A stretch of 44,894 nt of DNA from a virus (lineage: Duplodnaviria; Caudoviricetes): positions 1 through 44,894 of the IMG/VR virus record IMGVR_UViG_3300037423_001351. One strand, written 5' to 3'. Positions 3,440-31,880 of this stretch are shown piece by piece. Position numbers and translations under genes: made by a program. The notes under the pieces were generated by a model, which did not search any database, had not been told where the DNA came from, and worked only from the letters and a program-made list of their open reading frames with translations. The first letter of the stretch is position 1. Each line of letters starts with the position of its first letter.

Positions 3440-3730
3440 TTAGAACGTGCCGACATGCTCTTCCCATGGACGGAGCTCGGCCCGCTCGATGTTCTCGACC
3501 CAGGCATCCGGTGCATACTGGGCGAGGGTGGTCACTGGAACGCCGGTGTCCTCATGCACGACCAGGCTATCCTTGAAGTGCTTCTGCGCCATGATCTCCT
3601 CGATCTCCTTGGGGTAGCGCTCGTCGAGGGTGATGAGGATGAAGCCGCTGACCCGCTCTGCCGTGCATGGATCCCCGTTCATCCATTGGACCGGCCGCTT
3701 CCAGTCGACGGGCGGGCGTTCGAGGAGCAT
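3440..3730 (-). CDS. hypothetical protein ending ...VGTF
   Basis: start directly abuts upstream TAA. Confidence 0.75.
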   Translation of the reverse strand: MLLERPPVDWKRPVQWMNGDPCTAERVSGFILITLDERYPKEIEEIMAQKHFKDSLVVHEDTGVPVTTLAQYAPDAWVENIERAELRPWEEHVGTF

Positions 3731-4102
3731 TTAGAACGATCCCCATCCGGGTAGCTCTTCTAGCGCTTGCATGCGTCGAGCGCGTCTAGCTTGCTCGAAT
3801 ATCTCTCTTGCGCGTTCTCGCTGCTCTGCGAGCGTCTGTGATGCTTCGCGGTCGCGTTTCTCTTGTGCAATGCGCTTGATCGCTTCGCGCTGCGTTCGTT
3901 CGCTATCGAGGGCAAAGCCAACCTGCTGCTCCAGGCATTTTCGTGCGACCAGGACGCCAGCTTTCTCGGAGAGGATGCGCAGCGGCTTGGCGTTGTGGTC
4001 CTTGGCGAGGATGATCGCCGCCTGGATCGCCGTGGATACATCAGGTTGCGTGACGGTCTGAAACATGCCGTCCTCGTCCTCGTATTGAAGCGTGACGCTC
4101 AT
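3731..4102 (-). CDS. hypothetical protein ending ...PGWGSF
   Basis: ORF with charged helical C-terminal half. Confidence 0.8.
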   Translation of the reverse strand: MSVTLQYEDEDGMFQTVTQPDVSTAIQAAIILAKDHNAKPLRILSEKAGVLVARKCLEQQVGFALDSERTQREAIKRIAQEKRDREASQTLAEQRERAREIFEQARRARRMQALEELPGWGSF

Positions 4103-4127
4103 GCCGTGGCGAGGAAGAGCTTCTTGC

Positions 4128-4286
4128 TCATCGCTGGGATGCCCTTTCTCGCCGTTCCCGCAGTGTGACGTAGGCGGCGTCCCTGGCTTCCTGTGACCCT
4201 GCCTCGCGAGACAGTCGGTCGAGCTCGGCGTTGGAATAGATCGTGCTGCTGAATCTTTCGAGGCAGCGTTCGTAGCGGTCGCTCAT
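4128..4286 (-). CDS. hypothetical protein (52 aa)
   Basis: ATGA overlap; MSDRYERCLERF... Confidence 0.55.
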   Translation of the reverse strand: MSDRYERCLERFSSTIYSNAELDRLSREAGSQEARDAAYVTLRERRERASQR

Positions 4287-4702
4287 ATCCGCCGAGCCTT
4301 CCGCTTCTTGTTCTTGCCGAGCATTCGCTTGAGGCTCTCGCTCTGCGGTCGGTAGCGCTGCGCATGCCGTGGATGCATGCCCAGGTCGTATTTCAGGCCG
4401 CGGAAGTCGTATGGATCCGGCGGTGGTGGTGGGGCAGGTGGCTCCGCTGCCTTGCGAGCGTCGATCTGCTCGCGGGTCTCGAACTGCGGATGCCCTGGAT
4501 AGTGCGGTGACAGCACCCAGCCGCGGCGGTTCACCCAGTCCTCGCCAATGTCGCGAGCGCAATCGCCGCAATACCACTTGTCCATGCCGTGGTTGTAGAA
4601 GAGCGCCGGCTCGGCCTGACATGACTGACGGTTGCAGGCGCCGCCTTCGAGACCCTTGTTGGGTTTGAGGGGCGCGTCGAGCGGGAGATCGCCGTAAGCC
4701 AT
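4283..4702 (-). CDS. Cys-rich hypothetical protein (CNRQSC...YCGDC)
   Basis: TAATG coupling; putative Zn-binding cysteines. Confidence 0.7.
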   Translation of the reverse strand: MAYGDLPLDAPLKPNKGLEGGACNRQSCQAEPALFYNHGMDKWYCGDCARDIGEDWVNRRGWVLSPHYPGHPQFETREQIDARKAAEPPAPPPPPDPYDFRGLKYDLGMHPRHAQRYRPQSESLKRMLGKNKKRKARRI

Positions 4703-4980
4703 TAGCTCCAGTCTCCTGCACGGTAGGCGGGGTTCGCATCGCATGCGGGGTGATGGGTGCCGTGCGGCTTGTGGCACTGCTTGCAGACCTGATCTTGGGG
4801 GCCTGGGGCGCCGTAGAACAGGCGGCGGAAGCCTGCGAACGCAATGTCGTAGGCGGCAGCCTCACGCTTGGTGAGATCGCCATAGTGGTCTCGCATGGTC
4901 TCCAAGGCTTCGAGGGTGCCAGGGAGCATGCGATCTTCCTGAAACTCCTTCACGACCGCCAGTGCTTCGTCGTTCGTCAC
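4702..4980 (-). CDS. hypothetical protein (C-terminal CxxC...HxxxC)
   Basis: GAGGAG SD plus hairpin 4996-5011. Confidence 0.75.
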   Translation of the reverse strand: MTNDEALAVVKEFQEDRMLPGTLEALETMRDHYGDLTKREAAAYDIAFAGFRRLFYGAPGPQDQVCKQCHKPHGTHHPACDANPAYRAGDWS

Positions 4981-5061
4981 GTCTTTCTCCTCATGCGGTC
5001 ACCGCTGACCGTGATTCTCTTGTAGTCGGTGGTCCTGTCGGATGCGGGTGGCTTCGGGTGC

Positions 5062-5382
5062 CTAGAAGATCGCCAGGTCTTTCATCTCTTCCATGGCAGC
5101 ATCCCTCGCGGCTCTCTTCGCGTAGATCGCCTTGTGGTGGTGGTAGATGCCGCTGTTGACCCGCAGCTGTGCGTTATGGCCGTCGAAGGAGAGAGCATCG
5201 ATCAGCTCACCCTTCTTCGTGATGAAGCCGTGGGCCACGAGCTCCTCGTAGACCGGCGTGGACAACGGGTTGTCGGCACACGCCACGCCTTTGAAGAACT
5301 GGAGCCCTTCGAGCGCCGCCGGTGACAGCTCGTCGATGCGGAAATCGATCGGATTCCGCGGTAGCTCCACCATGTCGCTCAT
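5062..5382 (-). CDS. hypothetical protein ending ...DLAIF
   Basis: ATGA-coupled ORF. Confidence 0.75.
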   Translation of the reverse strand: MSDMVELPRNPIDFRIDELSPAALEGLQFFKGVACADNPLSTPVYEELVAHGFITKKGELIDALSFDGHNAQLRVNSGIYHHHKAIYAKRAARDAAMEEMKDLAIF

Positions 5383-5579
5383 GGGTGCTTCTGCCAGAAG
5401 CCAACGCCGGCCGCGCGGGTGATGGACACCTTGCCCTGCTCGAACAAGCCGTTGAGCGCGATCACTGGGTCGAAGCCAACCTCCTGCTGGATCTCATCGG
5501 TCGTGCGGAGCCTGCCGTCCCTCAACAGGTAGAGGACGGCGTTCTCTTTCGCCGCGAGCGATTGGTCAGTTTTCGTCAA
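5379..5579 (-). CDS. small possible winged-helix protein
   Basis: TTGA overlap, GAGGAG SD; VLYLLRDGRLRTTDEIQQEVG...ALNGLFEQGKV resembles a wHTH. Confidence 0.5.
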   Translation of the reverse strand: MTKTDQSLAAKENAVLYLLRDGRLRTTDEIQQEVGFDPVIALNGLFEQGKVSITRAAGVGFWQKHP

Positions 5580-5716
5580 GCTAGGCGACTCCTCTGTCCT
5601 GGGTGGAAGCAGTGACCGACTAGCGCCTGGGGATGAAGGATGACGCGCTTGCCGTCCCACTCGACGGCGAGCCAGTGAATGCCGTTATGCGTGACGGTCA
5701 CGAACTTGGCGCTCAT
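5576..5716 (-). CDS. hypothetical protein (46 aa)
   Basis: ATGA overlap. Confidence 0.55.
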   Translation of the reverse strand: MSAKFVTVTHNGIHWLAVEWDGKRVILHPQALVGHCFHPGQRSRLA

Positions 5717-5982
5717 CGGAAGAGCCTCAATCCAGACTCGACCGCATTGTCGCCTGCAGCGTCCCAACGCTCGCCGAAGTTGCTGAGCCAATGCATCGCC
5801 GCATCGAGCTCCTGCCTGCGCTCCTCGGTCTCGGCCGGCGGGATATAGTTGGACTTCTCACCGTCCCTCACCGCCCAGCACTCGAACATCAGCTCGTCGG
5901 CGCTCATGTTGGGCAGCTTGTGTGCCTCGCAATACGCCTTGAGTTCGTCGCACAGCTTCAACTCCTCTGCGCTCCATGACAT
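5713..5982 (-). CDS. hypothetical protein
   Basis: GAGGAG SD before MSWSAEEL. Confidence 0.75.
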   Translation of the reverse strand: MSWSAEELKLCDELKAYCEAHKLPNMSADELMFECWAVRDGEKSNYIPPAETEERRQELDAAMHWLSNFGERWDAAGDNAVESGLRLFR

Positions 5983-5996
5983 TTGTCGTCTCCTCA

Positions 5997-6362
5997 TCAG
6001 TCGAAGTCCACGTCCGACGCCCAATCGGCCCACTTCTCGCGCCAGTATTCCAGCTCCTCGCCTTCACACTTGCGGACGCCGTTGCAGAAACCGCCGAAGA
6101 TGTGCCTCGTGCCGTTCACCGGCGGGAACACGTTGTTGCGATTGATGCTGCCTTTGAGGCTTTCGCGACCCTCGGACACGCGCCGGAACGGCTGGATCTC
6201 GTAGCGAGGACAGCCGCCGAGCATCTCGCCAATCGCGATCACGCGACCAAGGACGTAGCAATCATCCAGGAACTCGAAGTCATAGGAGCGAACCCAATCG
6301 CCCTTCTCGATCTTCACACAGTCCTCTTCGGTCTGCGACCGCCAATTCTGAATACCTGGCAT
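5997..6362 (-). CDS. hypothetical protein
   Basis: GAGGAG SD plus hairpin 6379-6394. Confidence 0.8.
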   Translation of the reverse strand: MPGIQNWRSQTEEDCVKIEKGDWVRSYDFEFLDDCYVLGRVIAIGEMLGGCPRYEIQPFRRVSEGRESLKGSINRNNVFPPVNGTRHIFGGFCNGVRKCEGEELEYWREKWADWASDVDFD

Positions 6363-6404
6363 TTCAATCTTCTCCTCTCGGTCACCGCTGACCGTGATTC
6401 TCTG

Positions 6405-6644
6405 TTACGCGAGCTCCGCTTGGGGTTCGGCTGGCAATTGATTGACGATGTGCGGGTATTCGTGCTCGCATCCGAGAATGCAGCCATGCTCGGCCGCCAC
6501 GAACACATACTGATCGCCGGTGGCGTCGACCCACTCCTTGCATGCCGTGACCTCGTAGTTCACAGGTCCACGGCTACCCCAGTCCCCGCTGATATTGGCC
6601 GGCTCGCCGGTCGACCAGGCGATAGGCTTTTCCCAGTCGATCAT
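6405..6644 (-). CDS. hypothetical protein
   Basis: TGATG coupling. Confidence 0.7.
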   Translation of the reverse strand: MIDWEKPIAWSTGEPANISGDWGSRGPVNYEVTACKEWVDATGDQYVFVAAEHGCILGCEHEYPHIVNQLPAEPQAELA

Positions 6645-6994
6645 CAGAATGAACCCCAGCCCTCGATCTCCACGGAAGCCTGGTCGAGTGCCTCCTGCAG
6701 TGCCTCGCGCAGCTTTGCTGGGTCAGGCGGCGGGGCGCCTGCATCGAACTTGCTGCGGATAGCCTGGCCCGCGAGGAGCTGCTCGAACTGGGCGTAGGAT
6801 ATGACCGTGGTGCCGTTGCGTTTCGCCGCGGCTGCCTTGGTCGTGTCGCTGCGCGATGCCACGAGGTAGTCGGTGTGCGGATACACCTTGTCGTGGATCG
6901 TGAAGCCGCGAGCCTCTGCCCTCGCCGACCAAATGTCGCGGGTGACAAGCTGGCCGCCGCTCGTGCCCTTGCCGGTGAAGCAGATGGAGCTCAT
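6644..6994 (-). CDS. stand-alone BRCT-domain protein ending ...EGWGSF
   Basis: ICFTGK...R...AEARG...V...TDYLVA...TKAAAAKRNGTTVISYAQF matches the BRCT of NAD-dependent ligase/RFC type. Confidence 0.75.
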   Translation of the reverse strand: MSSICFTGKGTSGGQLVTRDIWSARAEARGFTIHDKVYPHTDYLVASRSDTTKAAAAKRNGTTVISYAQFEQLLAGQAIRSKFDAGAPPPDPAKLREALQEALDQASVEIEGWGSF

Positions 6995-7233
6995 GGTTCC
7001 ATCACAATCGTCAGCTCGGGCCAATCGACTGCACGAGCAGCGCCGTCGAATTTGGTGCCGCTCACATCGTCGAGGATGAGGCGCATGCGTGTGATGCCCT
7101 CGTGATCGTCGAAGCCGTTGTAGGTGACGTGGGCGTCCCACAGCTTGAGCGCCTGGTCTGGATCCTCGGCGACGATGAACCAGTCGAGGTTGTCGCCCAT
7201 CGGATCGTCAGCCTGGACGTGATAGAGCTTCAT
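6991..7233 (-). CDS. hypothetical protein
   Basis: GAGGAG SD. Confidence 0.75.
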   Translation of the reverse strand: MKLYHVQADDPMGDNLDWFIVAEDPDQALKLWDAHVTYNGFDDHEGITRMRLILDDVSGTKFDGAARAVDWPELTIVMEP

Positions 7234-7247
7234 TGGTGTCTCCTCAT

Positions 7248-7395
7248 TGCTCGACTGGTGTCGAGCATTCGTTCGTGGATTGCGGGTGGGTTCGAGCGAG
7301 CCCGTCAGACGCGCTCACAGAGCGCGTGGGAGCGTCGGTGGTGTCGTCAGACCTGACGACCTCCCCAAGCTCGCTGGTGACGCTTAAATCGCGTC
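7248..7395. ncRNA. candidate structured RNA or leader
   Basis: several perfect stems (7248-7267, 7309-7327, 7343-7360, 7379-7395) and closing helix agcgagc/gctcgct. Confidence 0.3.
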
Positions 7396-7429
7396 TCCCG
7401 CGCGTGTTGCGTGGTGTCTGCACGGTCGC

Positions 7430-7747
7430 TTACCAATCGAACTCGGGGAGCCCTTCGATCAGCTCTGCGTCTTGATCGATGAGGATCCAATCGCACTGCT
7501 CAGCGATAGCCTGGTCGAAGATCGCCATGATGTTGCCGTCGATGCCGTCCTGCACGAGATCCTCGCGCTCGATGCCACCGATCGGAAGGAGCCAGCCGTA
7601 GGCGCCGTGTGGGTAGACGATGAAGCCGTCCGTCCAATCGCCGGGCTTCTGACCTTCGATGTCCAAGGCCACGCGCTCGGCGAGCTCCTCGGACTGCTGT
7701 TGGGTGATGTGCGCCGTGGACAGGCACAGCATTTTCTCGACGCTCAT
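7430..7747 (-). CDS. DUF5983-like protein
   Basis: LCLSTAHIT...YGWL...CDWILIDQDA...LPEFDW pattern; AGGAG SD. Confidence 0.65.
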   Translation of the reverse strand: MSVEKMLCLSTAHITQQQSEELAERVALDIEGQKPGDWTDGFIVYPHGAYGWLLPIGGIEREDLVQDGIDGNIMAIFDQAIAEQCDWILIDQDAELIEGLPEFDW

Positions 7748-7804
7748 GGGAACTCCTGAAATGCGGGGGTGCCCAGCGCGGACACCCCCGACTGTGGTGA
7801 CTTG

Positions 7805-8329
7805 TTAGAACGCCGGCAGACCGGAGGCCGCGGAACCTAGATCCATCGCACCGGGCGGCGGGGTCTGTGGGGTTGGGGACGCTGCCGCCGCATGAGCAGC
7901 TGCGACCGCGGGTGCGGAGACCTGGGCGGCGTTCGCCGCGATGATGAACTGCCGCGCGTAGCTCTCGGTCGCCTTGTGCATCCTGCCGGTGCGCAGGTTG
8001 AGCATGTCGATGGGGTATTTCGGCCGGTTGGGCGAGTAGCCCTTCAGCTGATACTGCTCGCCAGTCCGACGATCGTGGATAATGGCGTTGTAGTGATGCT
8101 CGGTGAGACCGGCGAACCGACCGTAGATGCCGAGCTCTCGCCTCTCGCGAGCCTCGATCGCGCTCGTATCGTTGGTCTTGGCGGTCACCTTGATAACCAA
8201 CTCGTCGGTGCCGATCTGACCGCCGCCGGCCGTGATGTTGAGACCGTGGCGCTGCGCGAGAGCCTGGAGCTCCTGCTGAATTTCTGCGGAGAGCATTCTG
8301 TGCCCGGCCTTGTTGAACTGCTGAAACAT
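7805..8329 (-). CDS. hypothetical protein with Ala/Pro tail ending ...GLPAF
   Basis: GAGGAG SD, hairpin and 18-bp box upstream. Confidence 0.85.
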   Translation of the reverse strand: MFQQFNKAGHRMLSAEIQQELQALAQRHGLNITAGGGQIGTDELVIKVTAKTNDTSAIEARERRELGIYGRFAGLTEHHYNAIIHDRRTGEQYQLKGYSPNRPKYPIDMLNLRTGRMHKATESYARQFIIAANAAQVSAPAVAAAHAAAASPTPQTPPPGAMDLGSAASGLPAF

Positions 8330-8404
8330 TCGTTTCTCCTCGTCTAGCGGTCACCGCGACCGCAGGTGTGTTGTGTGACACGCACCGCTGGCATGCAAAT
8401 GGCT

Positions 8405-9543: not shown

Positions 9544-10296
9544 CTAGAAAAGGGCTATTTCGGCCATTTCGTCGAGCGCTTGCTGGCTCATGATCGCTTC
9601 AATCTCGGCCTTGGTTTCTGCCTCGTCTGCGATGCGCTGGTTCTCCTCGGCGAGCACCGTCAGTGCCAGCTGGTTCATCGCCTCGCCGTGCGCATCGTAG
9701 GCAGTGGTGAGGAGCTCGCGCACCTTGGTATGGGTGCGGCCGGTCGAGGACTCGCCGAATGCCCGAAGGGTCTCTTTCTTCTCGGCGAGGTAGACGCCGG
9801 CGAACCCAGGGTCGTGTAGCGCCACGTCCTGAATGTTGGAGATGATGTCGGCGATCTTCACGAGCATCGCGGTGGGGCCAGCGACGATCACGTTCGCCGC
9901 GGCTGTGCGGATCCTGGCTTCCCGACCCTTGATGTTCCGGGGCTTGGTCAGCGCCGCAACGTCGCGTTGGATCTGGTGGTTGAACTGAACGCCGATCTCT
10001 TCGATGGGCACGGTCGTATCTTCCACCACGTCATGCAGCAGCGCCACAGTGAGCGTTCGCTCGTCTGTAATGCCGTGCCGTATCAGGATGTTGGCGACTT
10101 CGATGGGGTGGTCGATGTAGGGGGAGCCGTCATACTTGCGTATCTGGTCGGCGTGAGCGAGCCTCGCGAACGCCAGCGCCTGCTTGGGCATCGGCTTGGA
10201 CTCGATGTTACTCACCGACTGCCGCTTCTTCTGTTGAGCGATCAGCGCCTTCATGTGCGCTATCTCGTTCTTGACTTGCTCCGGTGTCATTCTCAT
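9544..10296 (-). CDS. HD-domain RelA/SpoT-type (p)ppGpp hydrolase-like protein (SAH/Mesh1-like)
   Basis: AH..Q.RK..G.PYI.HP..VA, ALLHDVVEDT, V..LTK and VKIAD...N motifs. Confidence 0.85.
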   Translation of the reverse strand: MRMTPEQVKNEIAHMKALIAQQKKRQSVSNIESKPMPKQALAFARLAHADQIRKYDGSPYIDHPIEVANILIRHGITDERTLTVALLHDVVEDTTVPIEEIGVQFNHQIQRDVAALTKPRNIKGREARIRTAAANVIVAGPTAMLVKIADIISNIQDVALHDPGFAGVYLAEKKETLRAFGESSTGRTHTKVRELLTTAYDAHGEAMNQLALTVLAEENQRIADEAETKAEIEAIMSQQALDEMAEIALF

Positions 10297-12539: not shown

Positions 12540-12572
12540 GGGACATTTGGTGCCCCATGTGTGTGTCAGTCG

Positions 12573-13365: not shown

Positions 13366-13796
13366 GCGCGCATCAGCGGCATGATGGTGAGCGTCGCCAC
13401 AACCTTGTCGGCCATGATCTGCTCGATCTGCGTGTCGTTCAGACGGCACTCGATCTTGCCCAGCTGCGCAAGCGCTTCCAGGGGAGAGAGCGTCAGCATG
13501 CTCATGACGACTTCGCCACCGCACTCGTCCGTCCAGTAATCGCCGGCGTTCCAGGCATCTTTGCCGGGGAACACAGGATCATCGCGCTCGACGGACTCGT
13601 CGTCCTCGTCCGTGAGGCGGCCGAAGGTCTCCAAGAAGCCGTCCGTCATATACTGGTCGCCCCAATCCTTCTGGAGCTCCAGAAGGGTATGAAACTCGGC
13701 TTCGGCGTAGGACTCGGCGAAGATCACCGGCCCTGTCCAGATGCTGCCCGACGAACTCTCGGCAACATCAGCCTGAAAGAATTTCTTCCCAGCCAT
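13362..13796 (-). CDS. acidic hypothetical protein
   Basis: TGATG coupling. Confidence 0.75.
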   Translation of the reverse strand: MAGKKFFQADVAESSSGSIWTGPVIFAESYAEAEFHTLLELQKDWGDQYMTDGFLETFGRLTDEDDESVERDDPVFPGKDAWNAGDYWTDECGGEVVMSMLTLSPLEALAQLGKIECRLNDTQIEQIMADKVVATLTIMPLMRA

Positions 13797-14212
13797 CAAA
13801 AGCTCCCTGTCTCGTTACCGTGGATTGCCCAGCGGCGCGCGGCGTCCATCGCTTCTTCGGGGAGCGGGTGAATGAGCGCGCCCTTGAAGATGTCGCCGAC
13901 ATCTTCCTCGTTCGCGGTCGCGACCCACTTATCCTCGTCGTCGCCGAGCTGACGGACGCCAATGTCGATGCGGATGCCCAGGTGCGGTGAGTAGATCTCC
14001 TGGCTCTCAGTGATTGACTGCTGCCAATCCTCGAACTTGAGTTCCTCGATCTTGCATTCGCCCTCGCAGACCTCGCAGACGGCGCCGCTATCGAACGTGG
14101 TCGACAGCTCCCATTCCTGCTTCTCTGCATCCCAGTATGCGTAAGCATCGGCGCGCACGTCAGCGCTGCCGCATGTCCCGCAAACCATCTGTAACTTACC
14201 GCTCACCTGCAT
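13796..14212 (-). CDS. zinc-ribbon protein ending ...ETGSF
   Basis: CGTCGS.DV.ADA...WD...Q.WEL...CEVCE; GAGGAG SD. Confidence 0.8.
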   Translation of the reverse strand: MQVSGKLQMVCGTCGSADVRADAYAYWDAEKQEWELSTTFDSGAVCEVCEGECKIEELKFEDWQQSITESQEIYSPHLGIRIDIGVRQLGDDEDKWVATANEEDVGDIFKGALIHPLPEEAMDAARRWAIHGNETGSF

Positions 14213-16580: not shown

Positions 16581-16829
16581 TTAGTCGGCATGCAAACGGC
16601 TTTCCTTGAAGGCGTCCGGGAGCTCCTGAACCCATACCGATACAAGATCCTCGGGCGCGAACGTCACGAAGCCGCCGTTGTTGGCGAGGGTGATGATGAT
16701 CGAGTGCTTCACGTCACGGATGCCCTCGATCGGATAGCTACCGACGCTGCGGATCGTGACGCTCGTCGGGCACTTGCGCTTCACCGAGTCCTTGGCGAGC
16801 TTGAGCTTGTAGGCGGCCGAGGCGCTCAC
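16581..16829 (-). CDS. hypothetical protein
   Basis: GTGA overlap. Confidence 0.65.
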   Translation of the reverse strand: MSASAAYKLKLAKDSVKRKCPTSVTIRSVGSYPIEGIRDVKHSIIITLANNGGFVTFAPEDLVSVWVQELPDAFKESRLHAD

Positions 16830-17137
16830 CAGAGATCCTCCGAGAACAGATCGTTCGAGGAGCTGCCGCTCTTGCGGTTGGTGGGGTCGATCTGACCCGC
16901 GCGCTCGGCAATATCGAGCGCCTCCTTGCGACCGACGAAGCGGCCGGCGCTGGTCAGGAAGCCTTGGTCGTCGGGGTGGATGCGCAGCTCCCAGTCCCAA
17001 TGATCCTTGACTGGGTGAAGCAACGAATGGTGCCTTGCTGGCGGCGGTGCCGAGACGATCAGCTCGGTCGGATAGCCTTGGTTGACCCAGGCGTCAGCGA
17101 GCTTGAGCCGTAGCGCCGCAGCGACGATCGTCTCCAT
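16826..17137 (-). CDS. widespread phage hypothetical protein
   Basis: IVAAA...RH...QGFLTS.GRFV.R.EA...A..AGQ...LFSEDLW pattern. Confidence 0.8.
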   Translation of the reverse strand: METIVAAALRLKLADAWVNQGYPTELIVSAPPPARHHSLLHPVKDHWDWELRIHPDDQGFLTSAGRFVGRKEALDIAERAGQIDPTNRKSGSSSNDLFSEDLW

Positions 17138-17757
17138 CAGAACGACCCCCACAAGCCTTCGAGCGCAACCTCGGCGGCGACCACCGCCTGCTGATGGTGC
17201 ATTGCCTCGATCACCATCTCGGCGCTCTTGGGCGCGTCAGACGCACGGCATCGAGCGATGCACCAATCGATCGCGGGCTGGCTCTCCCAGGCTTTGCCCT
17301 GAAACTCCGGTGACTGGACGCCCGCGAGCTCCAGCACGAAACCTTCGCCGCGTCCGAACAGCTTGAACAGCTGGTCGCGGCAGATGAGGAGGCGCCGGCT
17401 ATTCGGCGGCGTGAGCTCCCTGGGCAGAAAGGTCAGCTTCTCCTCGCCCCTCGATGGGAGCCACATCTTCTGTGCAATCTCGCGCAGGCAGGGGCCGCGG
17501 AGCGTGAGCGCTTCCCAACCTTCAGGCTTGAAGCACTGACCGGCGCGACCCAGGTTCTTGTAGAGCTGCCACTCACCGCCCTTCTGTATCGCCCGCGCGA
17601 AGTTGCCGTCGCGGTTGATGATTACGAAGTCGGCGTCTTCCGCACCGCAGGTGTCCCACCAGAAGATGTGAGCGTCGGCGAGCAACGATTCCGTCTGCGC
17701 CGGACAACCGGCGGCGACGTATCGCTGTAGCTTGCTCAAATCGTTGGGGTGCAACAA
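17137..17757 (-). CDS. hypothetical protein ending ...GLWGSF
   Basis: GAGGAG SD, hairpin and 18-bp box upstream. Confidence 0.8.
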   Translation of the reverse strand: MLHPNDLSKLQRYVAAGCPAQTESLLADAHIFWWDTCGAEDADFVIINRDGNFARAIQKGGEWQLYKNLGRAGQCFKPEGWEALTLRGPCLREIAQKMWLPSRGEEKLTFLPRELTPPNSRRLLICRDQLFKLFGRGEGFVLELAGVQSPEFQGKAWESQPAIDWCIARCRASDAPKSAEMVIEAMHHQQAVVAAEVALEGLWGSF

Positions 17758-19082: not shown

Positions 19083-19835
19083 TTAGGCGGCGATCTTCGC
19101 CAGCTCCTGAATGAGCCCGTTGTCCTGAAGGACGAGCTCACGCGGGTTGCTCGCATCGGGAGCGACAGCGCCGACGAGCCGGAACAGGCTGGTCATTTGC
19201 TGCGCCTGGGCACGAGCCGTGCCCTCCTTGAGCCCCGCCGCGAGGAACGCGTCGGTCATGGACTTGCCGCTGATGCGACCGTTCGTCTGAAGCTCCGCGA
19301 CCGCGACCTTCGTGTAGCCGCTGAGCTTCTTGCCGTGAGTGATCGCCGCGATCAGGTTCTCGGCCTTCTCGCGCACCTTCTTGGCGTTGAGAGCCGCAAG
19401 GTTCGCATCGAGGGTCGCCTGGTCGATCTGCGCGACGGCCGTGAACTCCCGCATCGGAGCAGCCGGCGTCTTGGGAGCGCGCTTCGCACCGCTCTTCTTG
19501 CCGGTCGTGGTGCCCGAAGCGTCGATCGCACCCAGGATCTCCTGGTCGGTCGGCGCGTCGACATCCTCCGCGGTGATTTCCGGCTCGACCGTGGTGGCCG
19601 AAGCGCTGTCACCATCGTCGGCGAGCAGTGCGAGGACTTCCTCGTCGACCACCGGCTCGGCGGTCAGCTCACCTTCGGCGTTGTCGTTGGTCTCGGCGGT
19701 CTCAATGACCTCCGTGCCACCGTCACCTTCGCCGCCCGGTGCAACACCGACGACTTCGCCGTCAACGACCGTCAGCTCGGGCGCGCTGCCCGAAGAAGCC
19801 GGTGAAGCCTGACTTTTCTTGTTCCGCTTGCTCAA
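19083..19835 (-). CDS. hypothetical protein, acidic disordered N-half and helical C-domain
   Basis: GAGGAG SD before TTG, hairpin and promoter upstream. Confidence 0.8.
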   Translation of the reverse strand: MSKRNKKSQASPASSGSAPELTVVDGEVVGVAPGGEGDGGTEVIETAETNDNAEGELTAEPVVDEEVLALLADDGDSASATTVEPEITAEDVDAPTDQEILGAIDASGTTTGKKSGAKRAPKTPAAPMREFTAVAQIDQATLDANLAALNAKKVREKAENLIAAITHGKKLSGYTKVAVAELQTNGRISGKSMTDAFLAAGLKEGTARAQAQQMTSLFRLVGAVAPDASNPRELVLQDNGLIQELAKIAA

Positions 19836-23950: not shown

Positions 23951-24907
23951 TTAGAAGGCTTCGGACCAGTCGCCTTGGGTGGCCGCCTTCGAGTATTCGG
24001 TGCCTTGCGCCTCGAAGAAATTGGCATGCTCGATGCCAACCTGCATGCCGTCGATCCACGGCAGCGGGTTGTCGGGGATCCGATAGATCGGGGTCTGTCC
24101 GAGCTGGCGCAGCCGAATGTCGGCGATGTAGCGAATGTAGCGCTTGACCTCCGCGGCGGTCAGACCAGGCACGTCACCGGCCTGGAACGCCAGGTCGATG
24201 AAGGCGTCCTCGTTCGCCACGGCTTCCTGGGCGATCTCCGGGATGCGCCGCGCGAGGAGCTCGCGATCGATGCCGTCCGTCTCCGCGAGGTATGCGTGGA
24301 ACAGACGAGCGATGCCTTCGCAGTGCAGGCTCTCGTCGCGCACGGACCAGGAGATGATCTGCCCCATGCCCTTCATGAGGTTCTGTCGGGGGTAGTTCAG
24401 GAGCATCGCGAAGCTGGCGAACAGCGCGAGCCCTTCACCGAAGCCGCTGACCCCTGCGAGCGATAGTGCGACCTCGCTTGGGTTGGTCGGGTTGAAGCTG
24501 TGCATCCACTCGTGCTTCTTCCGCATCGCCTCGTATTCGAGGAAGGCGTGATACTCAGACTCAGGGAAACCGAGCGTGTCGAGCAGGTGCGAGTAGGCGG
24601 CGATATGCACGGTTTCCATGTTCTGGAACGCCGTGAGCATCATCAAGACCTCGGTCGGCTTGAAGATTCTGGCATAGATCGAGTGATAGCTGTTCAGCAC
24701 GTCCACATCCGCCTGCACGAACATGCGGAAAATGTTCACGAGCTGGCTGCGCTGGTGGGGCGTCAGCTTACCGTTAAAATCCGACACGTCGCTGCCCATT
24801 GGCACTTCGGTCGGGAGCCAATGAACCTGCTGCTGCGTGTGCCAGAACTTGTAGGCCCAGGGGTAGCGGTGAGGCTTGTAGACTTTCGAGGCGACGGTGA
24901 GGCTCAT
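23951..24907 (-). CDS. nrdB: ribonucleotide reductase class I beta subunit
   Basis: HWLP.EV, ETVHIAAY (radical Tyr), EG..LF.SF, DESLH, NFFE. Confidence 0.95.
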   Translation of the reverse strand: MSLTVASKVYKPHRYPWAYKFWHTQQQVHWLPTEVPMGSDVSDFNGKLTPHQRSQLVNIFRMFVQADVDVLNSYHSIYARIFKPTEVLMMLTAFQNMETVHIAAYSHLLDTLGFPESEYHAFLEYEAMRKKHEWMHSFNPTNPSEVALSLAGVSGFGEGLALFASFAMLLNYPRQNLMKGMGQIISWSVRDESLHCEGIARLFHAYLAETDGIDRELLARRIPEIAQEAVANEDAFIDLAFQAGDVPGLTAAEVKRYIRYIADIRLRQLGQTPIYRIPDNPLPWIDGMQVGIEHANFFEAQGTEYSKAATQGDWSEAF

Positions 24908-25466: not shown

Positions 25467-25467
25467 G

Positions 25468-25758
25468 TTAATACTCCATGCTTTCGAGGGCTTTGCGCAC
25501 GAGCGTCCAAATGGGCGCCGTCTTGCGCGGATGATTGGTGATGCCGCCGGTGCGGTTCGGCTTCGCATGCCGAATGAGCGCCCAGGCGGGCGGTGGTTGC
25601 AGGTATCGAGCGAAGCGTTTCCACTTGCCCTTGGAGTAAGCACGAGCGCGGTAGTCGCCGCGGGCGTCGGTGCCACCCACGTTGTCGATGCAGACGGTGC
25701 CAAGGTCGGTGACCTTGCCGGTGACTGCGCTCCAGAGTTCGACGCGCACCACGATCAT
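25468..25758 (-). CDS. hypothetical protein
   Basis: ATGA overlap; MIVVRVELWSA..G...LG...I.N.GG...RGDY. Confidence 0.7.
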   Translation of the reverse strand: MIVVRVELWSAVTGKVTDLGTVCIDNVGGTDARGDYRARAYSKGKWKRFARYLQPPPAWALIRHAKPNRTGGITNHPRKTAPIWTLVRKALESMEY

Positions 25759-26231
25759 CGACCGGCGCCCATGAATGGGTTGAGCCAGTTGGTGAGAATG
25801 CAGGGTGCGCGCCTGAACGGCGGGGCATGGTGCCGCGAGTGTTGTTTCGGAGACTGAATCAGCCCCGTCTCTTGAAGGAGCCGCACGATCGTCGGAGCAT
25901 TGCGCGGACGGTGTGCCCAGTAGTGAACCTGAGTCGAGACAGCGATGCCGGCGACCAGGAACGCCAAGAAGCACGAAGCGCCCGCATTAAAGAACAACGC
26001 CAGGCCGACGATCGCGGCGAGCGCGAAGGTAGGGCCATTGCGATAGAGGAAGCTGTTCTCGGTGAACGCGAGGGGATCGCGGTGATGGAGATGCGCGTGG
26101 TATGCCAGGTATGGACCTAGCACCGGCGTATCCTCTGACAGCAGGTTGTCCTGCCACCAGTGAAAGGCGCCGCTGAGCAAGTCAGCGACGAGCCACCCGA
26201 GCACAGCTTGGCCGACGAGCGCGTAGATCAT
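25755..26231 (-). CDS. CarF/TMEM189/FAD4-family lipid desaturase
   Basis: ADLLSG.FHW.QD, H.HH.DP, Q.H.WAH, LQ..G.I.S..QH..HH, CI.T.WLNP histidine boxes; TM segments. Confidence 0.85.
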   Translation of the reverse strand: MIYALVGQAVLGWLVADLLSGAFHWWQDNLLSEDTPVLGPYLAYHAHLHHRDPLAFTENSFLYRNGPTFALAAIVGLALFFNAGASCFLAFLVAGIAVSTQVHYWAHRPRNAPTIVRLLQETGLIQSPKQHSRHHAPPFRRAPCILTNWLNPFMGAGR

Positions 26232-27006: not shown

Positions 27007-27009
27007 TGG

Positions 27010-27246
27010 TTAGGCGTTGGCCTTCGTGACGATCTCGTCGACGAGGGTGTTGCCGGAGAAGTTGTTGGCGAAGATCGACGTGGACGCCTGGCCGTGGAGC
27101 TTAACCAAGGCACGGCTGCCGTCTGCACTGAACACTTCCAGCTCGCTGCTGGTCATGCCGGTGACCTTCTTCACGAACGGCTTGGTGCCGGTCACGGAGA
27201 CGGTCGTGACTCCATCGTCCAGCGTGAACGCTGCGGTGACGCTCAT
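27010..27246 (-). CDS. hypothetical protein
   Basis: AAGGA SD, biased codon usage. Confidence 0.75.
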   Translation of the reverse strand: MSVTAAFTLDDGVTTVSVTGTKPFVKKVTGMTSSELEVFSADGSRALVKLHGQASTSIFANNFSGNTLVDEIVTKANA

Positions 27247-27272
27247 TTATTTATTCCTTTCAGGTGCTTGGG

Positions 27273-27524
27273 TCAGAACTGGGCTTGGTCGGCGAGGAGG
27301 ATCTCGTTCGCCTTTTCGATCACCGCCTGGGCGTCCTGGACCCTGGCGAAGACTACGTTCGAGGCGAGACGCGCCTTCGAGCGCACCGATGGGCTGGTCA
27401 CCTGCCCGGTGCTGTCGAGGATGTCGGCGCTCGTGTGGTTGTATTGGCGCAGCCTCCAAGGGCCGACGCCCTTCATGGTCACTTCGCCGATACCGTTGAT
27501 GGTGAACTTGATTGGATTGCTCAT
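27273..27524 (-). CDS. hypothetical protein
   Basis: promoter upstream, biased codon usage. Confidence 0.75.
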   Translation of the reverse strand: MSNPIKFTINGIGEVTMKGVGPWRLRQYNHTSADILDSTGQVTSPSVRSKARLASNVVFARVQDAQAVIEKANEILLADQAQF

Positions 27525-27549
27525 GGGGTCTCTCTACTGTCGAGTGCAT

Positions 27550-27578
27550 GTGTTACAAAACGCATGCACCCAAGTCAA
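27550..27578 (-). promoter_or_regulatory. sigma70-like promoter
   Basis: TTGACT-N17-TAACAC on minus strand. Confidence 0.5.
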
Positions 27579-27582
27579 GCGA

Positions 27583-29619
27583 TCATTGGCAGGACAGGCA
27601 CTCAGGCTCGTCGACATACATCGGACCCGAAGCTTCGATCTGAGCTTGGGGCATCTCGCCGGCGACGTTGCTGACGGCCATGGCCTTCGATGCCGTGCGC
27701 GAGCGCAGATAGTAGAGGCTCTTGAGCCCCATTTCCCACGCCAGCTTGTGAACCGCGTTCAGGTCTTTCTTGTGAACGGTTGCCGGCAGGAAGATGTTCA
27801 CCGACTGCGACTGACAGACGAATGGGGTCCGATCCGCGGCGTGCTTCACGAGCCAGCGCTGGTCCATCTCAAACGCTGTGCGAAACACACCCTTCTCGGC
27901 AGGGCAGAGGTAGGGCAGGTGCTGCACCGAGCCGTCATTGATCGTGATCGACTGCCACTGCTTTTCGAGCCAGGTCTCTTCGTCGAGCTCCATGATCCCG
28001 GCGAACATTGGCTGGTCACCGAGCAGGAACCGCACCGTCTTGTTCATACGCTCAAGGCTGGAACGCAGCTGCTGGTAGCGGCGCCGGAGCTGGGCATCGA
28101 GATACTTGTTCTTCACGAGGAAGCTGCCCGAGAGCGTCTTTTGGGTGTAGGCGTTCGCCGGGGTCGGCTCACCGCAGGGCGAAGCACCGCCGGCGATGAT
28201 CGAGATCGAGGCGGTTGGCGCCACCGAGAAGACGTGGGTCAGGCGACGGGGTGCGATGTTGGGTTCAATCTCGCGAGCGTCGATGCTGTCGGGGCATTCC
28301 CCGCGCTCGTGAGCCATGCGCGCGTTCTCAACGTCAGCGGTGACCGACAGCCACTCCCACAGCTTCTTGTTGACGTTCTGCGCCGCAACGCTCTCGTAGG
28401 GGATCTCCTTCGATTGCAGGTAGGAGTGGAAGCCCATGATACCGCCACCGACTGACCGCTCGCGCTCGGCTGCATAGCGAGCGCGCTCGAAGCCCATGTA
28501 ATCGCGGCTGTTGTCGATGAACTGCTGAAGGATATTGTCGAGGAAGCGCATGAAGTCGCCGATGAACGCGGTGTTCCCGAACCACTGGTCCATCGTCTCC
28601 ATGTTCAGCGACGAGAGGCAGCAGACTGCGGTGCGCCAATTGCCCAGGTGGTCGGGGCCTGTCGGAAGGGTTATCTCCGAGCAGAGGTTCGACTGATAGA
28701 CCTTGAGGCCGAGCGCGTTGTGAATCTCCGGCTGACCCTTCGTAACCGCGTCCTCGAAGATGATGTAAGGCTCGCCGGTCTCCAGGCGGTTGGTGATAAG
28801 CTTAATCCAGAGCTCGCGGGCGTTGACAGTCGAAATGACTTCGCCTGACTTGGGACTCACGAGGTTCCAGGTGCGGTCGGCGTTCTCGCTCTCGTCGAAC
28901 ACCTTCTCCATGAACGCGTCGGGAATGACGACGCCGTGGTGCATGTTGTGAGCCTTGCGCCGCGGATCGCCACCATTCGCGTCAGACGGCCGGCGGATGG
29001 TCAGGAATTCTTCGATCTCGGGGTGGCTGATGTGCAGGTAGCCAGCTGCAGAGCCGCGCCGGAGACTGCCCTGGCTGATCGCGAGGGTCTGCGCATCCTG
29101 CCAGTGCAGGAACGGGATGATGCCGCTGGTCTTGCCGGTCAGCGAGCCTGCAATCGGTTCGTTGATCGAGCGAACGGGACTCCAGCAGGTGCCGATGCCG
29201 CCGCCTTTCGCTGCGAGCCAGATGTTCTCCCATGTCGCCTGTGCGATCGACTCCATGCTGTCGCCGACGAGGTTGAGAAAGCAGCTGATCGGGAGACCGC
29301 GCGAGACGCCGGAATTGGTGAGCACCGGGGTCGCCGGCATGAACCACAGCTGCGAGATTGCGTCGTAGAGCCGCTGCGCGTGGCCGTTCTGCTCACCGCG
29401 GACAAACTCGTCGGAGTTGGCGCAAGCTACGCGGGCGAACAGATCCTGGTAGCTCTCGCCTGGGAGGAGGTAGCGGTCGCGCAGGGTCGCTCGACCGAAG
29501 TCCGTCAGAAGCTCGTCACGACTGTCGTCCACCTGGATTACAATTGGGTCGCCTTCAACATCTTCAAAGGCATACGGGCGCACGGAAGCACCCGCGGGCG
29601 ACGGATCGGCTGCGGACAT
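27583..29619 (-). CDS. nrdA: ribonucleotide reductase class I alpha subunit (no evident ATP-cone)
   Basis: PATP, ISCFL, GGGIG, SNLCSEI, APTAS, KSLYY, C-terminal CLSCQ. Confidence 0.95.
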   Translation of the reverse strand: MSAADPSPAGASVRPYAFEDVEGDPIVIQVDDSRDELLTDFGRATLRDRYLLPGESYQDLFARVACANSDEFVRGEQNGHAQRLYDAISQLWFMPATPVLTNSGVSRGLPISCFLNLVGDSMESIAQATWENIWLAAKGGGIGTCWSPVRSINEPIAGSLTGKTSGIIPFLHWQDAQTLAISQGSLRRGSAAGYLHISHPEIEEFLTIRRPSDANGGDPRRKAHNMHHGVVIPDAFMEKVFDESENADRTWNLVSPKSGEVISTVNARELWIKLITNRLETGEPYIIFEDAVTKGQPEIHNALGLKVYQSNLCSEITLPTGPDHLGNWRTAVCCLSSLNMETMDQWFGNTAFIGDFMRFLDNILQQFIDNSRDYMGFERARYAAERERSVGGGIMGFHSYLQSKEIPYESVAAQNVNKKLWEWLSVTADVENARMAHERGECPDSIDAREIEPNIAPRRLTHVFSVAPTASISIIAGGASPCGEPTPANAYTQKTLSGSFLVKNKYLDAQLRRRYQQLRSSLERMNKTVRFLLGDQPMFAGIMELDEETWLEKQWQSITINDGSVQHLPYLCPAEKGVFRTAFEMDQRWLVKHAADRTPFVCQSQSVNIFLPATVHKKDLNAVHKLAWEMGLKSLYYLRSRTASKAMAVSNVAGEMPQAQIEASGPMYVDEPECLSCQ

Positions 29620-29700
29620 TTGAAATTCTACTCCTGGTATTCGGTGTTCGGTTGGGCGCTAAGTATAGCGCAGCGCATGTGTGTTGACTAGCATGCACCG

Positions 29701-30306
29701 CTAAGAAATAAGTGAGGCGAGCATCCCACACAGCTGAAAAAACTGTTGCGTTTTGAGCGCCGCCGCGACCGCACCGCAGCTGTCAGCAGGGTGCTCGGCC
29801 TTCTTGCCGATGAAACCCTTGCCGAACGGGTTGGGAATCTCCCACTCGTTCGTCTGGTGGCTCTGCGGCATACCGGATAGATCGCCTTCGAGCTCAAGCG
29901 CCCAGCGAACAATGTCTTCCTTGTCGGCGATCTTGTTGCCGCAGGTGGCGAGCTTGACCTCGGTGGGGGTGACCTCGATCAGGGGCACCGGGAGCGCCGC
30001 CAGGAGACCGACCGAAATACCGAAGGCGTAGCAAGCTGACGCCGACTGCGCACCGCTGGGGACTTCGCCCGCCGCGAGCTTGATGTTGTGCTGCGCGATC
30101 ACTGCTAGAATCTCGTTTCTGATCTTGCGCGCTCGCTCTAGCGCATCGCTGCTCTTGCGAACGCTCTTGATCTTCGTCGGTGCGGTCTCGATCAAACCGA
30201 CCGCTAGAACGCGCTCGATTTGGCGGGTGTCGGTGTTGACCGCGATCACGGACCATCCGGTCGCGGTGAGGCTGGGGTCGATCCCCAGGATATTGATGAT
30301 GCTCAT
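29701..30306 (-). CDS. RuvC-like Holliday junction resolvase
   Basis: ILGIDPSL..TG, AGEVP, V.P.EVK, A.K, EH.AD catalytic pattern. Confidence 0.85.
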   Translation of the reverse strand: MSIINILGIDPSLTATGWSVIAVNTDTRQIERVLAVGLIETAPTKIKSVRKSSDALERARKIRNEILAVIAQHNIKLAAGEVPSGAQSASACYAFGISVGLLAALPVPLIEVTPTEVKLATCGNKIADKEDIVRWALELEGDLSGMPQSHQTNEWEIPNPFGKGFIGKKAEHPADSCGAVAAALKTQQFFQLCGMLASLIS

Positions 30307-30677
30307 TTGTCTAGTCCGATTGCCTTCCTGATATCTATCTGTTGCCGGCGGCGGCCGACTTGCTCGCCGTATTCCCAGCGCTCTTTCATGATCCGAATGA
30401 TCGCCGCGGCCATGTCGGGTTCGACTGTTCCGGGGAACGTGGGGAAGTAGTAATCGCCAGCCTCGCGCAGCAGCCAGGGCGGAAGCTTCTGTCCGCGCCA
30501 CTGACCATCGTCGGTCGGGCGCAGATAGGTGTAGAAGCCGTCCTCGCGGGTGCCGTCAGAACGGGAGACCGTGAACACCACGCCATAGGCGCGGAATTTG
30601 GACACGAGCAGCCCATTCGACCAATGGTCGGCCGCCTGAACGATCTCGAAATCCTCGGGCAGATCGTATAGGCGCAT
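30303..30677 (-). CDS. hypothetical protein
   Basis: TGATG coupling. Confidence 0.7.
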   Translation of the reverse strand: MRLYDLPEDFEIVQAADHWSNGLLVSKFRAYGVVFTVSRSDGTREDGFYTYLRPTDDGQWRGQKLPPWLLREAGDYYFPTFPGTVEPDMAAAIIRIMKERWEYGEQVGRRRQQIDIRKAIGLDK

Positions 30678-31048
30678 CACCCATCCACTGCAGTTTTTGG
30701 AGCTCCGGCGGCGGGAGCCATATTACGGTTCCGACCATGCCACGCGTCGAGCTTTTCCTGCGCGTGCTGCTCGCAGCGCCATGCTCGCTTCGCTGCCCAT
30801 CGTTCCATCCGAAGACGCTCGTTGTCCTCGGTGGAACAGTCGACGCATGTGAAGGTGTAGCCACCTGGCGCCCAGCCGAACATCGCCAGGTCTGGTGTCT
30901 CGCCGGGCATCGGTTCGTAGGGTGGCAGCGGCTTGTTAGGTTCGACCGTCGAGAGCCAGAGCTGCGCTTCGGCTTTCTGCGGACCATCTCCCTCGGCTAG
31001 TCCCTTGATGTGGTCATAGAGCGACTGCGGAACGATCACCTTCTGCAT
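30677..31048 (-). CDS. zinc-binding hypothetical protein
   Basis: FGWAPGGY...C.DC...KRAWRC..H pattern. Confidence 0.7.
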   Translation of the reverse strand: MQKVIVPQSLYDHIKGLAEGDGPQKAEAQLWLSTVEPNKPLPPYEPMPGETPDLAMFGWAPGGYTFTCVDCSTEDNERLRMERWAAKRAWRCEQHAQEKLDAWHGRNRNMAPAAGAPKTAVDG

Positions 31049-31299
31049 CAACGCTGCCCTTCGGGAATATCGATGATGGTCTCGAAGGGCGGTTCACAGC
31101 CAAGCGAACACAGGTGACCAAGGCTGCTCATCAAATCCCATAGCTGGAACATGGAATAGCCTTCCTCGTCGACCTTGGGCGCCTTCCACTCTCTGATCGC
31201 CGGAGCACGCCGGCGGACTTCTTCGTGCTGGCGCCGGAGCTCGTCGAGCCCCTTCTGCTTGAGCTTCACGCGGACGTAATGGTTGACGTTGAACTGCAT
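31048..31299 (-). CDS. phage hypothetical protein
   Basis: FN.N.YV.VKL...G...DEEGY..FQLW.LM pattern. Confidence 0.75.
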   Translation of the reverse strand: MQFNVNHYVRVKLKQKGLDELRRQHEEVRRRAPAIREWKAPKVDEEGYSMFQLWDLMSSLGHLCSLGCEPPFETIIDIPEGQR

Positions 31300-31880
31300 C
31301 AGAACGTCCCAAACCCTTCGATGTGCTCCAGCGCATCGTCGTTCGCCTGGTTCTTCGCCACGTCCTGGGCGCGCTTGAAGCCCTCGGTGATGATGGGGTG
31401 CATCTGCGCGTTCTTGAGGATGAGGCGACGAATGTCTGTGTCGAGCGCGGCGATCTTGACCTCGTAGTGTCGCACGTCGCGGATCCTCTGTTCGATGTCG
31501 TCAGCGAGGGACAGGAACAGGTTGCACACGTCATTCCAGGAGAGCTCGATCGCCTCGATCAGCTCCATGTCCCCGCGGCTGGACTTGCGCTCGATGCGCT
31601 GCTTCGGCCGGAAGCGAAAGATGATGCCCTCGCGCTTGCCCACTCGCATGCTGTCGCATTCGAGCGCGGTGTTGATCGGTAGATTGAACTTCCGGTAGCC
31701 CTTGCCCGCGACCTCGCCGACGACGAGCTGCGGCATTTGCGTAACCACGGAGCCGCGCGAGCCGACCCGGTGGAACGCGTCTGCGAGCCACACGAGTTGC
31801 TTGATCGAGGGGGTCTTTGCTGCTGCTTCGATATGTTCCGGCGACGGCGGGGTAACCGGCGCTTTCTTCTTCCCGCTCAT
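31299..31880 (-). CDS. hypothetical protein ending ...IEGFGTF
   Basis: ATGA overlap. Confidence 0.8.
   Translation of the reverse strand: MSGKKKAPVTPPSPEHIEAAAKTPSIKQLVWLADAFHRVGSRGSVVTQMPQLVVGEVAGKGYRKFNLPINTALECDSMRVGKREGIIFRFRPKQRIERKSSRGDMELIEAIELSWNDVCNLFLSLADDIEQRIRDVRHYEVKIAALDTDIRRLILKNAQMHPIITEGFKRAQDVAKNQANDDALEHIEGFGTF

Follow-up and report, generated by a model that had tools for sequence, protein, structure and literature searches.

A conserved aromatic-glycine-x-aromatic C-terminal tail on unrelated non-structural proteins of SSU5/RHEph10/nickie-group phages and on small serine recombinases

We analysed a viral DNA stretch of 44,894 nucleotides (IMG/VR record IMGVR_UViG_3300037423_001351, Caudoviricetes; hereafter the window), a phage fragment of 61% GC in which all called genes lie on the minus strand. 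Several of its otherwise unrelated proteins end in G-[S/T]-F, one phage's dialect of a wider aromatic-G-x-aromatic tail that is also found in related phages and on small serine recombinases. This tail is conserved, modular and flexible, is carried by non-structural proteins and is selected as protein. Judging from its sequence and distribution, we consider it fairly probable that these unrelated proteins use the tail to dock onto a single common partner, one present in the host cell as well.

The tail in the window and in related phages

Coordinates and strands are given in window numbering, and genes were called independently of the open reading frame (ORF) list used for a preliminary description of the sequence. 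That description had named six proteins ending in G-[S/T]-F, and all six were found as real-looking minus-strand ORFs with these ends: 3440..3730 (96 aa, EEHVGTF), 3731..4102 (123 aa, a long charged helix, EELPGWGSF), 6644..6994 (a stand-alone BRCT domain at about residues 4-73, followed by a Pro/helical linker and EIEGWGSF), 13796..14206 (a zinc-ribbon protein, phrog_32296, ending NETGSF and lacking an aromatic residue at -3), 17137..17754 (205 aa, function unassigned, LEGLWGSF) and 31299..31880 (193 aa, a beta-barrel plus helical body ending EHIEGFGTF, in a core slot flanked by SbcC and RuvC). Two of the six start codons are uncertain by a few codons, that of the zinc-ribbon protein being among 14188, 14206 and 14212. 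As had been proposed, the six have no other similarity, since BLAST connects their bodies only via the last 12-19 residues. A fold search with the model of 31299 gave no match above Z 3.8 among 48,161 chains; in BFVD it matched a single phage protein, itself uncharacterised. The BRCT tail had no usable match in the ESM Atlas.

The enrichment above chance for which the preliminary description had asked was borne out. G[ST]F is terminal in 6 of the 86 window genes, against 0.024 expected from composition (P 2e-13) and 0.046 from its internal rate (P 1e-11), while none of 1799 stop codons outside genes is preceded by it. Among random X.Y patterns of equal rarity, 1 in 20,000 draws reached six gene ends, and shuffling of the terminal columns of the window genes gave P=0.0003.

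Gene content assigns the window to the SSU5/RHEph10/nickie group of ~110-kb phages and phage-plasmids, with which it shares a DnaE-type polymerase, SSB, RecA, SbcCD, RuvC, RNR, CobS/CobT, DnaB and primase in a common order. Part of this set (CobS, a split CobT, primase and DnaB, together with PhoH) comes from contig G001, which is identical to the window and reaches further upstream. The DnaE gene (41449..44835, minus strand), which places the window in the group, encodes a protein 42-43% identical to those of RHEph10-type Rhizobium phages, 37-38% to those of nickie-like Pseudomonas phages and about 35% to that of SSU5. It is 63-64% identical to elements within two Sphingomonas genomes, and the host is therefore likely a sphingomonad. 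RHEph10 and nickie are described as related to the AB and SSU5 phage-plasmid groups in the available part of PMC7969092.

For comparison among genomes, a strict tag was defined as [FWY]-G-x-[FW] plus at most one further A, S or G, with the aromatic at -3, Gly at -2 and x at -1. It ends 75 called proteins in 12 group genomes, with ~0.1 expected per genome, although some of the 75 may be chance cases, e.g. BUCTxx99 56590. The counts per called genes are 4/86 in the window, 2/90, 8/175, 10/170 and 6/145 in relatives G002 to G005, 7/164 in RHEph10, 8/166 in N1_15, 8/153 in B1VFA, 9/163 in nickie, 11/167 in BUCTxx99, 2/136 in Cyrano and 0/127 in SSU5 (which has two Ala variants, WATW). No strict tag was found in the unrelated phages Seuss (0/111), ICP2 (0/71) and Woes (0/67, from 50 of its 74 kb), and all 185 homologues of the RHEph10 virion module are untagged. 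Each genome has its own dialect, such as PN[FY]GRF, PL[WF]G[MT]F, YGxW or F/I/M-G-x-[WF]-[AS], the window's being [EP]G[WF]G[ST]F; the motif first described is thus real but is a local form of a wider one. Two tagged slots are conserved from Rhizobium to enterobacterial phages, namely the gene between SbcC and RuvC (31299 in the window) and the gene after primase, which has a WGR domain in RHEph10 and L278; the latter slot is missing from BUCTxx99, and in G001 it has no called gene with the tag. ThyX of G004 is also tagged. The densest cluster seen lies at 27312-29846 of BUCTxx99 (L023), where eight nearly consecutive small genes (39-138 aa) end in YGxW, and L265 has a similar one. Among PHROG models, phrog_11572 alone touched two tails weakly (E 0.15 and 0.36), and no NCBIfam model covers the tail.

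The PN[FY]GRF-stop pattern matched 26 loci in IMG/VR, of which 19 have group neighbours, 18 of these with a called tagged gene and several sharing a contig; the remaining seven have neither group neighbours nor a called gene ending in the pattern. The P-x-[FW]-GMF-stop pattern matched 49 IMG/VR loci, six of them at called gene ends, all in the group and three from one contig. With NYGxW-stop, 115 loci were found; those at gene ends comprise members of the group, a single Acinetobacter phage initiator in 21 copies, and two cases that are probably due to chance.

Three looser ends had also been listed for the window, and all are present: LAIF in 5062..5382 (106 aa, EEMKDLAIF), IALF in 9544..10290, an HD (SpoT/Mesh-like) hydrolase to which an acidic helix ending EIALF is appended, and LPAF in 7805..8329 (174 aa, SGLPAF). 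The first two have Ala at -2 and are plausible loose members because Ala replaces Gly in tags of relatives (PLWASF, IFATF, FFARF, WATW). Membership of the third, whose orthologues end QMAQF and GGAV, is weak and doubtful. No relatives of the HD gene were found in IMG/VR. A probable seventh member, absent from the earlier list, is 2214..2486, which ends PGYASWS and whose two orthologues end NPLYGTF. The RNR small subunit at 23951 was excluded, as its GDWSEAF end is better read as what we take to be the usual R2 tail. Two further minus-strand genes, 4702-4980 (RAGDWS) and 27273-27524 (DQAQF, orthologue EGATF), may carry degenerate tags and were left uncounted. Directly downstream of a tagged gene, the phrog_839 protein at 16826-17137 (minus strand) has an aromatic end of a different type, FSEDLW, which is kept in G002, G003 and G005 (YSEDVW).

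Selection on the peptide and its occurrence on serine recombinases

The tail is preserved in orthologues while its variable position changes. All 15 full-length homologues of 31299 end in G-[FY]-G-[TSML]-F (one 116-aa fragment was left out); five Rhizobium-type homologues, only 15-25% identical, end in FGRF and two sphingomonad ones in PLWGQF. Orthologues of 17137 end in DLWGAF, SPLWGMF and NPLWGMF, those of the BRCT protein in ELWGLF and ALWGLF, and that of 3440 in IFATF; none was found for 3731 and 5062 in the genomes compared. The zinc-ribbon orthologue in G002 has no tail, so this protein appears to be a recent or weak member. The four phage homologues of the HD protein (RHEph10, N1_15, B1VFA and SSU5) likewise lack it, and they end in small residues. 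As these and the zinc-ribbon orthologue are untagged while the orthologues of the BRCT protein, 17137 and 2214 are tagged, the tail is gained or lost as a module. The strict tag occurs in 51 protein families, comprising 33 singletons, 16 that are wholly tagged and two that are mixed. The tail was also said to be appended past the recognisable domain, which holds for the BRCT protein, where the match to the LigA models reaches their very end and stops at residue 69-74 of 116.

It had been argued from differing codons that selection acts on the peptide, with overlap of the tail and the Shine-Dalgarno (SD) sequence of the next gene as an alternative. The codons of the tag do differ among the six genes, of which four are joined to the next gene by TGATG and one by TAA-ATG, 3440 being uncoupled. 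In the 12 group genomes, tagged genes are more often coupled than others (40/75 vs 621/1667, P=0.007), and the Gly codon is GGA or GGG in 35 of the 40 coupled genes vs 15 of the 35 uncoupled ones, the other 20 using GGC or GGT. However, since 35 of the 75 tagged genes are uncoupled, the tag is not confined to coupled genes; overlap with a ribosome-binding site shapes the codons but cannot explain the tail. None of the three outcomes that the preliminary description had named as refuting it (lack of enrichment, loss of the tails in orthologues, or a role as SD only) was thus observed.

A scan of bacterial genomes returned 32 loci, nine of them with a called tagged gene. Four of these are in three group prophages; the other five, without group neighbours, are four small serine recombinases (Resolvase plus helix-turn-helix) and one fragment. 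Their contigs are plasmid-like, defence-island-like or chromosomal and show no phage genes (identities by sequence, partly Pfam). In a profile search among the 150 nearest representatives of the recombinase family, the strict tag is terminal in 83, and in 96 if near variants are included, fractions inflated by the inclusion of the tail in the profile, and every dialect is present. All seven named hosts are Alphaproteobacteria. Dialects determined by the host are not supported, as W-ended recombinases occur in Magnetospirillum and Segnochrobactrum. Among 121 sampled alphaproteobacterial genomes, four had a recombinase match and the seed alone was tagged; four other matches are ~220-230 aa long and untagged, and one match was uncalled. 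No match to the recombinase was found in PLSDB at 1e-12. On a tree of 112 of the 150 rows (tail excluded, quick search), the tag changes 13 times vs 29 times after shuffling, which does not tell one gain from several.

Two independent sets, the 75 phage and the 83 recombinase tags, match in their position frequencies out to -9 and define a motif of ~10 residues, hydrophobic-x-x-[N/H/D]-P-x-[F/W/Y]-G-x-[F/W], sometimes with one small residue more, which in the window is shortened to [E/P]-G-[W/F]-G-[S/T]-F. Pro is at -5 in 42/75 phage and 63/83 recombinase tags, N, D or H at -6 in 41/75 and 63/83, and a hydrophobic residue at -9 in 42/75 and 58/83. One extra residue follows in 8/75 and 7/83 strict tags, and in a few recombinases 1-3 further ones are present. 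At times Ala, Asn, Ser or His stands in for the Gly, a pattern suggestive of a tight turn by which two aromatic rings are presented, and -9 would supply a third hydrophobic contact. In the linker before the tag, D/E (18.2 vs 14.3%) and Ala (17.3 vs 10.6%) are more frequent and hydrophobics (22.7 vs 30.4%) less so. In the AlphaFold model of 31299, confidence is good to about residue 178 and pLDDT is below 50 at 180-186 and 188-193; the tail is thus flexible in the model. Some bearers have just 39-52 residues, little more than the tag.

Host proteins with the tail were searched for in three sets. A profile of 70 tails matched no PDB sequence at E up to 10, and in 61 alphaproteobacterial genomes no match outside the G003 prophage improved on E 0.23; all seven matches of the whole G003 genome lie in that prophage. 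When 251 genomes of G003's family were scanned with a pattern, two matches resulted, the prophage and one not at a called gene end.

The possible partner and other explanations

The preliminary description had proposed a common hub that recruits a cargo set through the tail. The idea of a shared partner is supported, and the occurrence of the tail outside phages weakens a purely phage-encoded scaffold or capsid-loading reader. In the docking model each tagged protein would be an adaptor composed of a variable body, an acidic Ala-rich linker and a plug, and the tag-only members of 39-52 residues would titrate the partner as decoys.

The known peptide tails each share part of this design. The C-terminal tip of SSB is ..DDD-I-P-F and resembles the tag in its terminal Phe after an acidic stretch; however, it is one hub's tail that binds many partners, the reverse logic, and an acidic-P-F end occurs in 0/75 phage and 0/83 recombinase tags. 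The chemoreceptor C-terminal pentapeptide (NWETF type, xZxxZ), which tethers CheR and CheB according to the available part of PMC7390727, has aromatics at -3 and the last position, sits at the end of a linker and serves as a tether. Its xZxxZ formula formally covers the tag, exactly so for 67 of the 75 strict phage tags (the other eight have one residue more) and for four of the six window cases. In contrast, chemoreceptor peptides are acidic at their non-aromatic positions, and the bearers of the tag are not receptors. The tag has Gly at -2; an acidic residue at -1 is found in 4/75 and 1/83, and the [NHD]-P and the -9 anchor are additional. The net negative charge noted in the same text (PMC7390727) is seen in 8/75 phage and 13/83 recombinase tags, and no MCPsignal domain (PF00015) was matched on the tagged proteins scanned, unlike the MCP-domain proteins on which chemoreceptor peptides sit. 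The beta-clamp-binding motif Q-L-S-L-F/L of polymerases and transposases, with Q1 and L4 most conserved (PMC3971601, available part), is also a flexible C-terminal peptide common to unrelated proteins, including mobile-element recombination enzymes, with a hydrophobic -3, a small -2 and Phe last. Its flexible C-terminal location is matched by the 31299 model (one protein) and by linker composition, but Q is at -4 in only 1/75 and 1/83 tags and never together with L/M at -1 (0/158). The tail thus lacks a defining feature of the beta-clamp, SSB-tip and chemoreceptor-pentapeptide motifs.

The T4 proteins gp43, gp33 and gp55 bind the gp45 clamp through C-terminal epitopes (PMC2988020). This part of the T4 analogy of the preliminary description stood, while the LDFL string it quoted is absent from that paper's text as available. 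Like the tag, the T4 epitopes are interchangeable C-terminal plugs after divergent linkers on unrelated proteins of one phage; unlike it, they are on three known replication and transcription proteins and bind a phage clamp, whereas up to a dozen mostly function-unassigned proteins carry the tag. No gp45-like clamp was found among the Pfam and PHROG matches of the window and upstream G001 genes, a partial genome with several unannotated core genes. By analogy, the tail would work like the T4 and transposase clamp-binding tails. In agreement with the earlier statement that no such system was known, no published description of the motif was found by a search largely without subscription papers or supplements, so that a mention in a phage genome paper is possible. 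The kind of system is known, and the motif appears undescribed.

Since stand-alone recombinases use the tail, the partner is probably present in uninfected cells, and since among phages the tag is nearly confined to one group with hosts from Rhizobium to Escherichia, the best fit is a partner encoded by the group as well. Both properties are combined in the CobS/CobT MoxR-AAA+/vWA remodelling machine, the leading named candidate for the reader, one that on these grounds we put forward only tentatively. It is encoded in 9/9 group genomes compared and also in G003-G005, outside the window but in G001. The group's CobS-like ATPase and CobT-like protein, the latter combining an M48-like N domain with a vWA domain, resemble the CobS-CobT motor, and phage CobT has HExxH, and an intact DxSxS in the window's clade. 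A chromosomal CobT is present in 5/5 genomes holding a tagged recombinase or the fragment. CobT is, however, common in Alphaproteobacteria, and these five cases therefore say little. CobT is reported to hold its client near the MIDAS, or metal-ion-dependent adhesion site, and through the N domain (10.64898/2026.07.21.739949, available part, where phages go unmentioned). The known client CobN differs from tagged proteins in binding via folded domains near MIDAS, with no peptide tag, in the accessible text of 10.64898/2026.07.21.739949 and 10.64898/2026.10.09.757910. A complex prediction of the 42-residue tail of 31299 with the phage CobT vWA part, the CobT N domain and CobS gave a score of 0.00 twice and is evidence neither way. 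The clade of the window (G001-G004) has CobT split between two genes, located in G001 at L006 3052-5807, upstream of the window; HExxH is kept in the N half, which has a sigma70 region 4-like helix-turn-helix at its end, and the C half has the intact DxSxS. It is a single gene in the Rhizobium, Pseudomonas, Stenotrophomonas and enterobacterial relatives.

Several further observations weigh against docking on a host-present machine. ICP2 and Woes (in the part read) are untagged though both encode CobS/CobT, so the machine is not sufficient. A general host hub predicts tags in many phage groups, but the gene-terminal matches in the two IMG/VR scans are group-only (18/18 and 6/6 loci). SSU5 has no strict tag, and the tag load ranges from 2 to more than 11 among genomes. 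No host housekeeping protein with the tail was found in the PDB, the 61 alphaproteobacterial genomes or the 251 genomes of G003's family. The recombinase fraction is inflated as stated above, and an organism name was obtained for 3 of 30 representatives looked up.

The tail might instead be a degron, read by a host protease or adaptor that keeps early phage proteins and recombinases short-lived, with tag-only peptides as decoys. Such a signal suits any cargo, including ThyX and the HD hydrolase, whose untailed homologues end in small residues, and a second end signal is already present in the group, as [AD]A ends 9/86 window genes and 26/164 RHEph10 genes. The [AD]A ends, which we take to be a ClpX signal, are frequent in alphaproteobacterial members (the window, RHEph10, B1VFA, N1_15 and G005; up to 27/153), with one each in nickie and BUCTxx99, and are a second, host-linked end signal, probably for ClpXP. 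However, the fixed ten-residue spacing and near-invariant Gly of the tail resemble a shaped plug more than a loose hydrophobic end, and untagged recombinases are not rich in Ala-Ala ends (3/54); we regard a degron as rather improbable.

A special case of docking, in our view unlikely, would be a host replication or repair hub (a non-canonical sliding clamp or DnaB-type helicase) by which proteins acting on DNA are brought together at forks and breaks. The conserved bearers do work on or next to DNA (the WGR gene after primase, the BRCT protein, the SbcC-RuvC-slot gene and the serine recombinases), and transposases bind the clamp via C-terminal peptides (PMC3971601, available part). Most bearers are nevertheless small proteins without assigned function, and the Q and L of the clamp motif never occur together in the tags (0/75, 0/83), whereas 12/12 distinct group DnaE proteins carry a separate Q-x-E-L-[ML], QIELM in the window (residue about 926), just before a uracil-DNA glycosylase-like domain; this is a predicted and likely host clamp-binding motif. 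An Acinetobacter lambdoid phage initiator just upstream of DnaB ends LNYGDW, which would suit such a hub, but this lead was set aside because its last 15-20 residues swap freely among unrelated types in genomes full of SD-driven G-rich ends. The types among these initiators (L235 3125-4018 and proteins P0174-P0207) are LNYGDW, TVKGAW, KPKGFLGG, GEWVEF and GAWAEL, and the three seen in context all precede a DnaB-sized gene.

Overlapping with docking, the reader could be confined to the phage group (a scaffold or capsid-loading machine), with the tagged recombinases belonging to small elements that exploit these phages. This would explain why the gene-terminal tag is almost confined to the group among viral contigs, why dialects switch genome-wide between phages and why the G003 matches are all inside the prophage. 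We find it quite unlikely, because tagged recombinases lie on contigs resembling plasmids or defence islands, or singly among host genes, without phage genes in the vicinity, show all dialects, with W-ended ones also in Alphaproteobacteria, and because G006, one of their hosts, has no group DnaE (the other four recombinase or fragment hosts were not searched for it). That the tail is a mere by-product of coupling, as the five coupled window cases might suggest, is contradicted as a sole cause and highly improbable, since the 31299 orthologue of G002 ends in TAG without overlap, aromatics, Pro and Asn add nothing to an SD sequence and stand-alone recombinases are tagged; it survives as a codon-level overlay.

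Neighbouring genes and significance of the tail

Some other genes, those of the window all on the minus strand, deserve mention. A core coiled-coil gene (40851-41390) lies between DnaE and a gp32-like SSB in 9/9 genomes, and its size and position recall, to our mind, T4 UvsY. The core genes at 19083-19835 and at L006 1045-1620 (9/9 and 7/9 genomes) have a similar C-terminal motif, G-T-A-x-x-[QH]-A-x-x-[MI], and look winged-helix-like by eye, with no Pfam match; the former matched unnamed clusters only in the ESM Atlas. At 35463-36390, the ORFs 35809-36390 (phrog_2105) and 35463-35861, the second called from a TTG start, overlap by ~50 bases, an arrangement kept in G002 (79-87% identity) that may be a programmed frameshift or a true overlap. 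Amid the replication genes, 25755-26231 encodes a lipid desaturase domain protein (PF10520, E 1e-34), an unusual auxiliary gene with no homologue among the matches listed for G002, RHEph10, nickie and SSU5.

The tail may be an undescribed proteobacterial address code, in which a ten-residue sequence delivers any protein to CobS/CobT, a reading we offer as a speculative one. On this reading CobS/CobT would be an adaptor-programmed remodeller or protease of general use, beyond its role as cobalt-chelatase motor. SSU5-like phages would carry their own copy with a fast-turnover library of adaptors against host targets and DNA breaks, and small serine recombinases would use the host machine to dismantle their own reaction complexes.

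The tag marks about 1 in 20 genes of a widespread group of phages and phage-plasmids, plus a broad family of mobile recombinases. If docking is true, dozens of function-unassigned proteins share one partner, and identifying it would give a handle on all of them. Phage CobS/CobT is, to our knowledge, an open annotation puzzle; the reader of the tail would be either a site on a conserved bacterial machine whose binding of peptides has gone unrecognised, or the function so far missing for the phage CobS/CobT.

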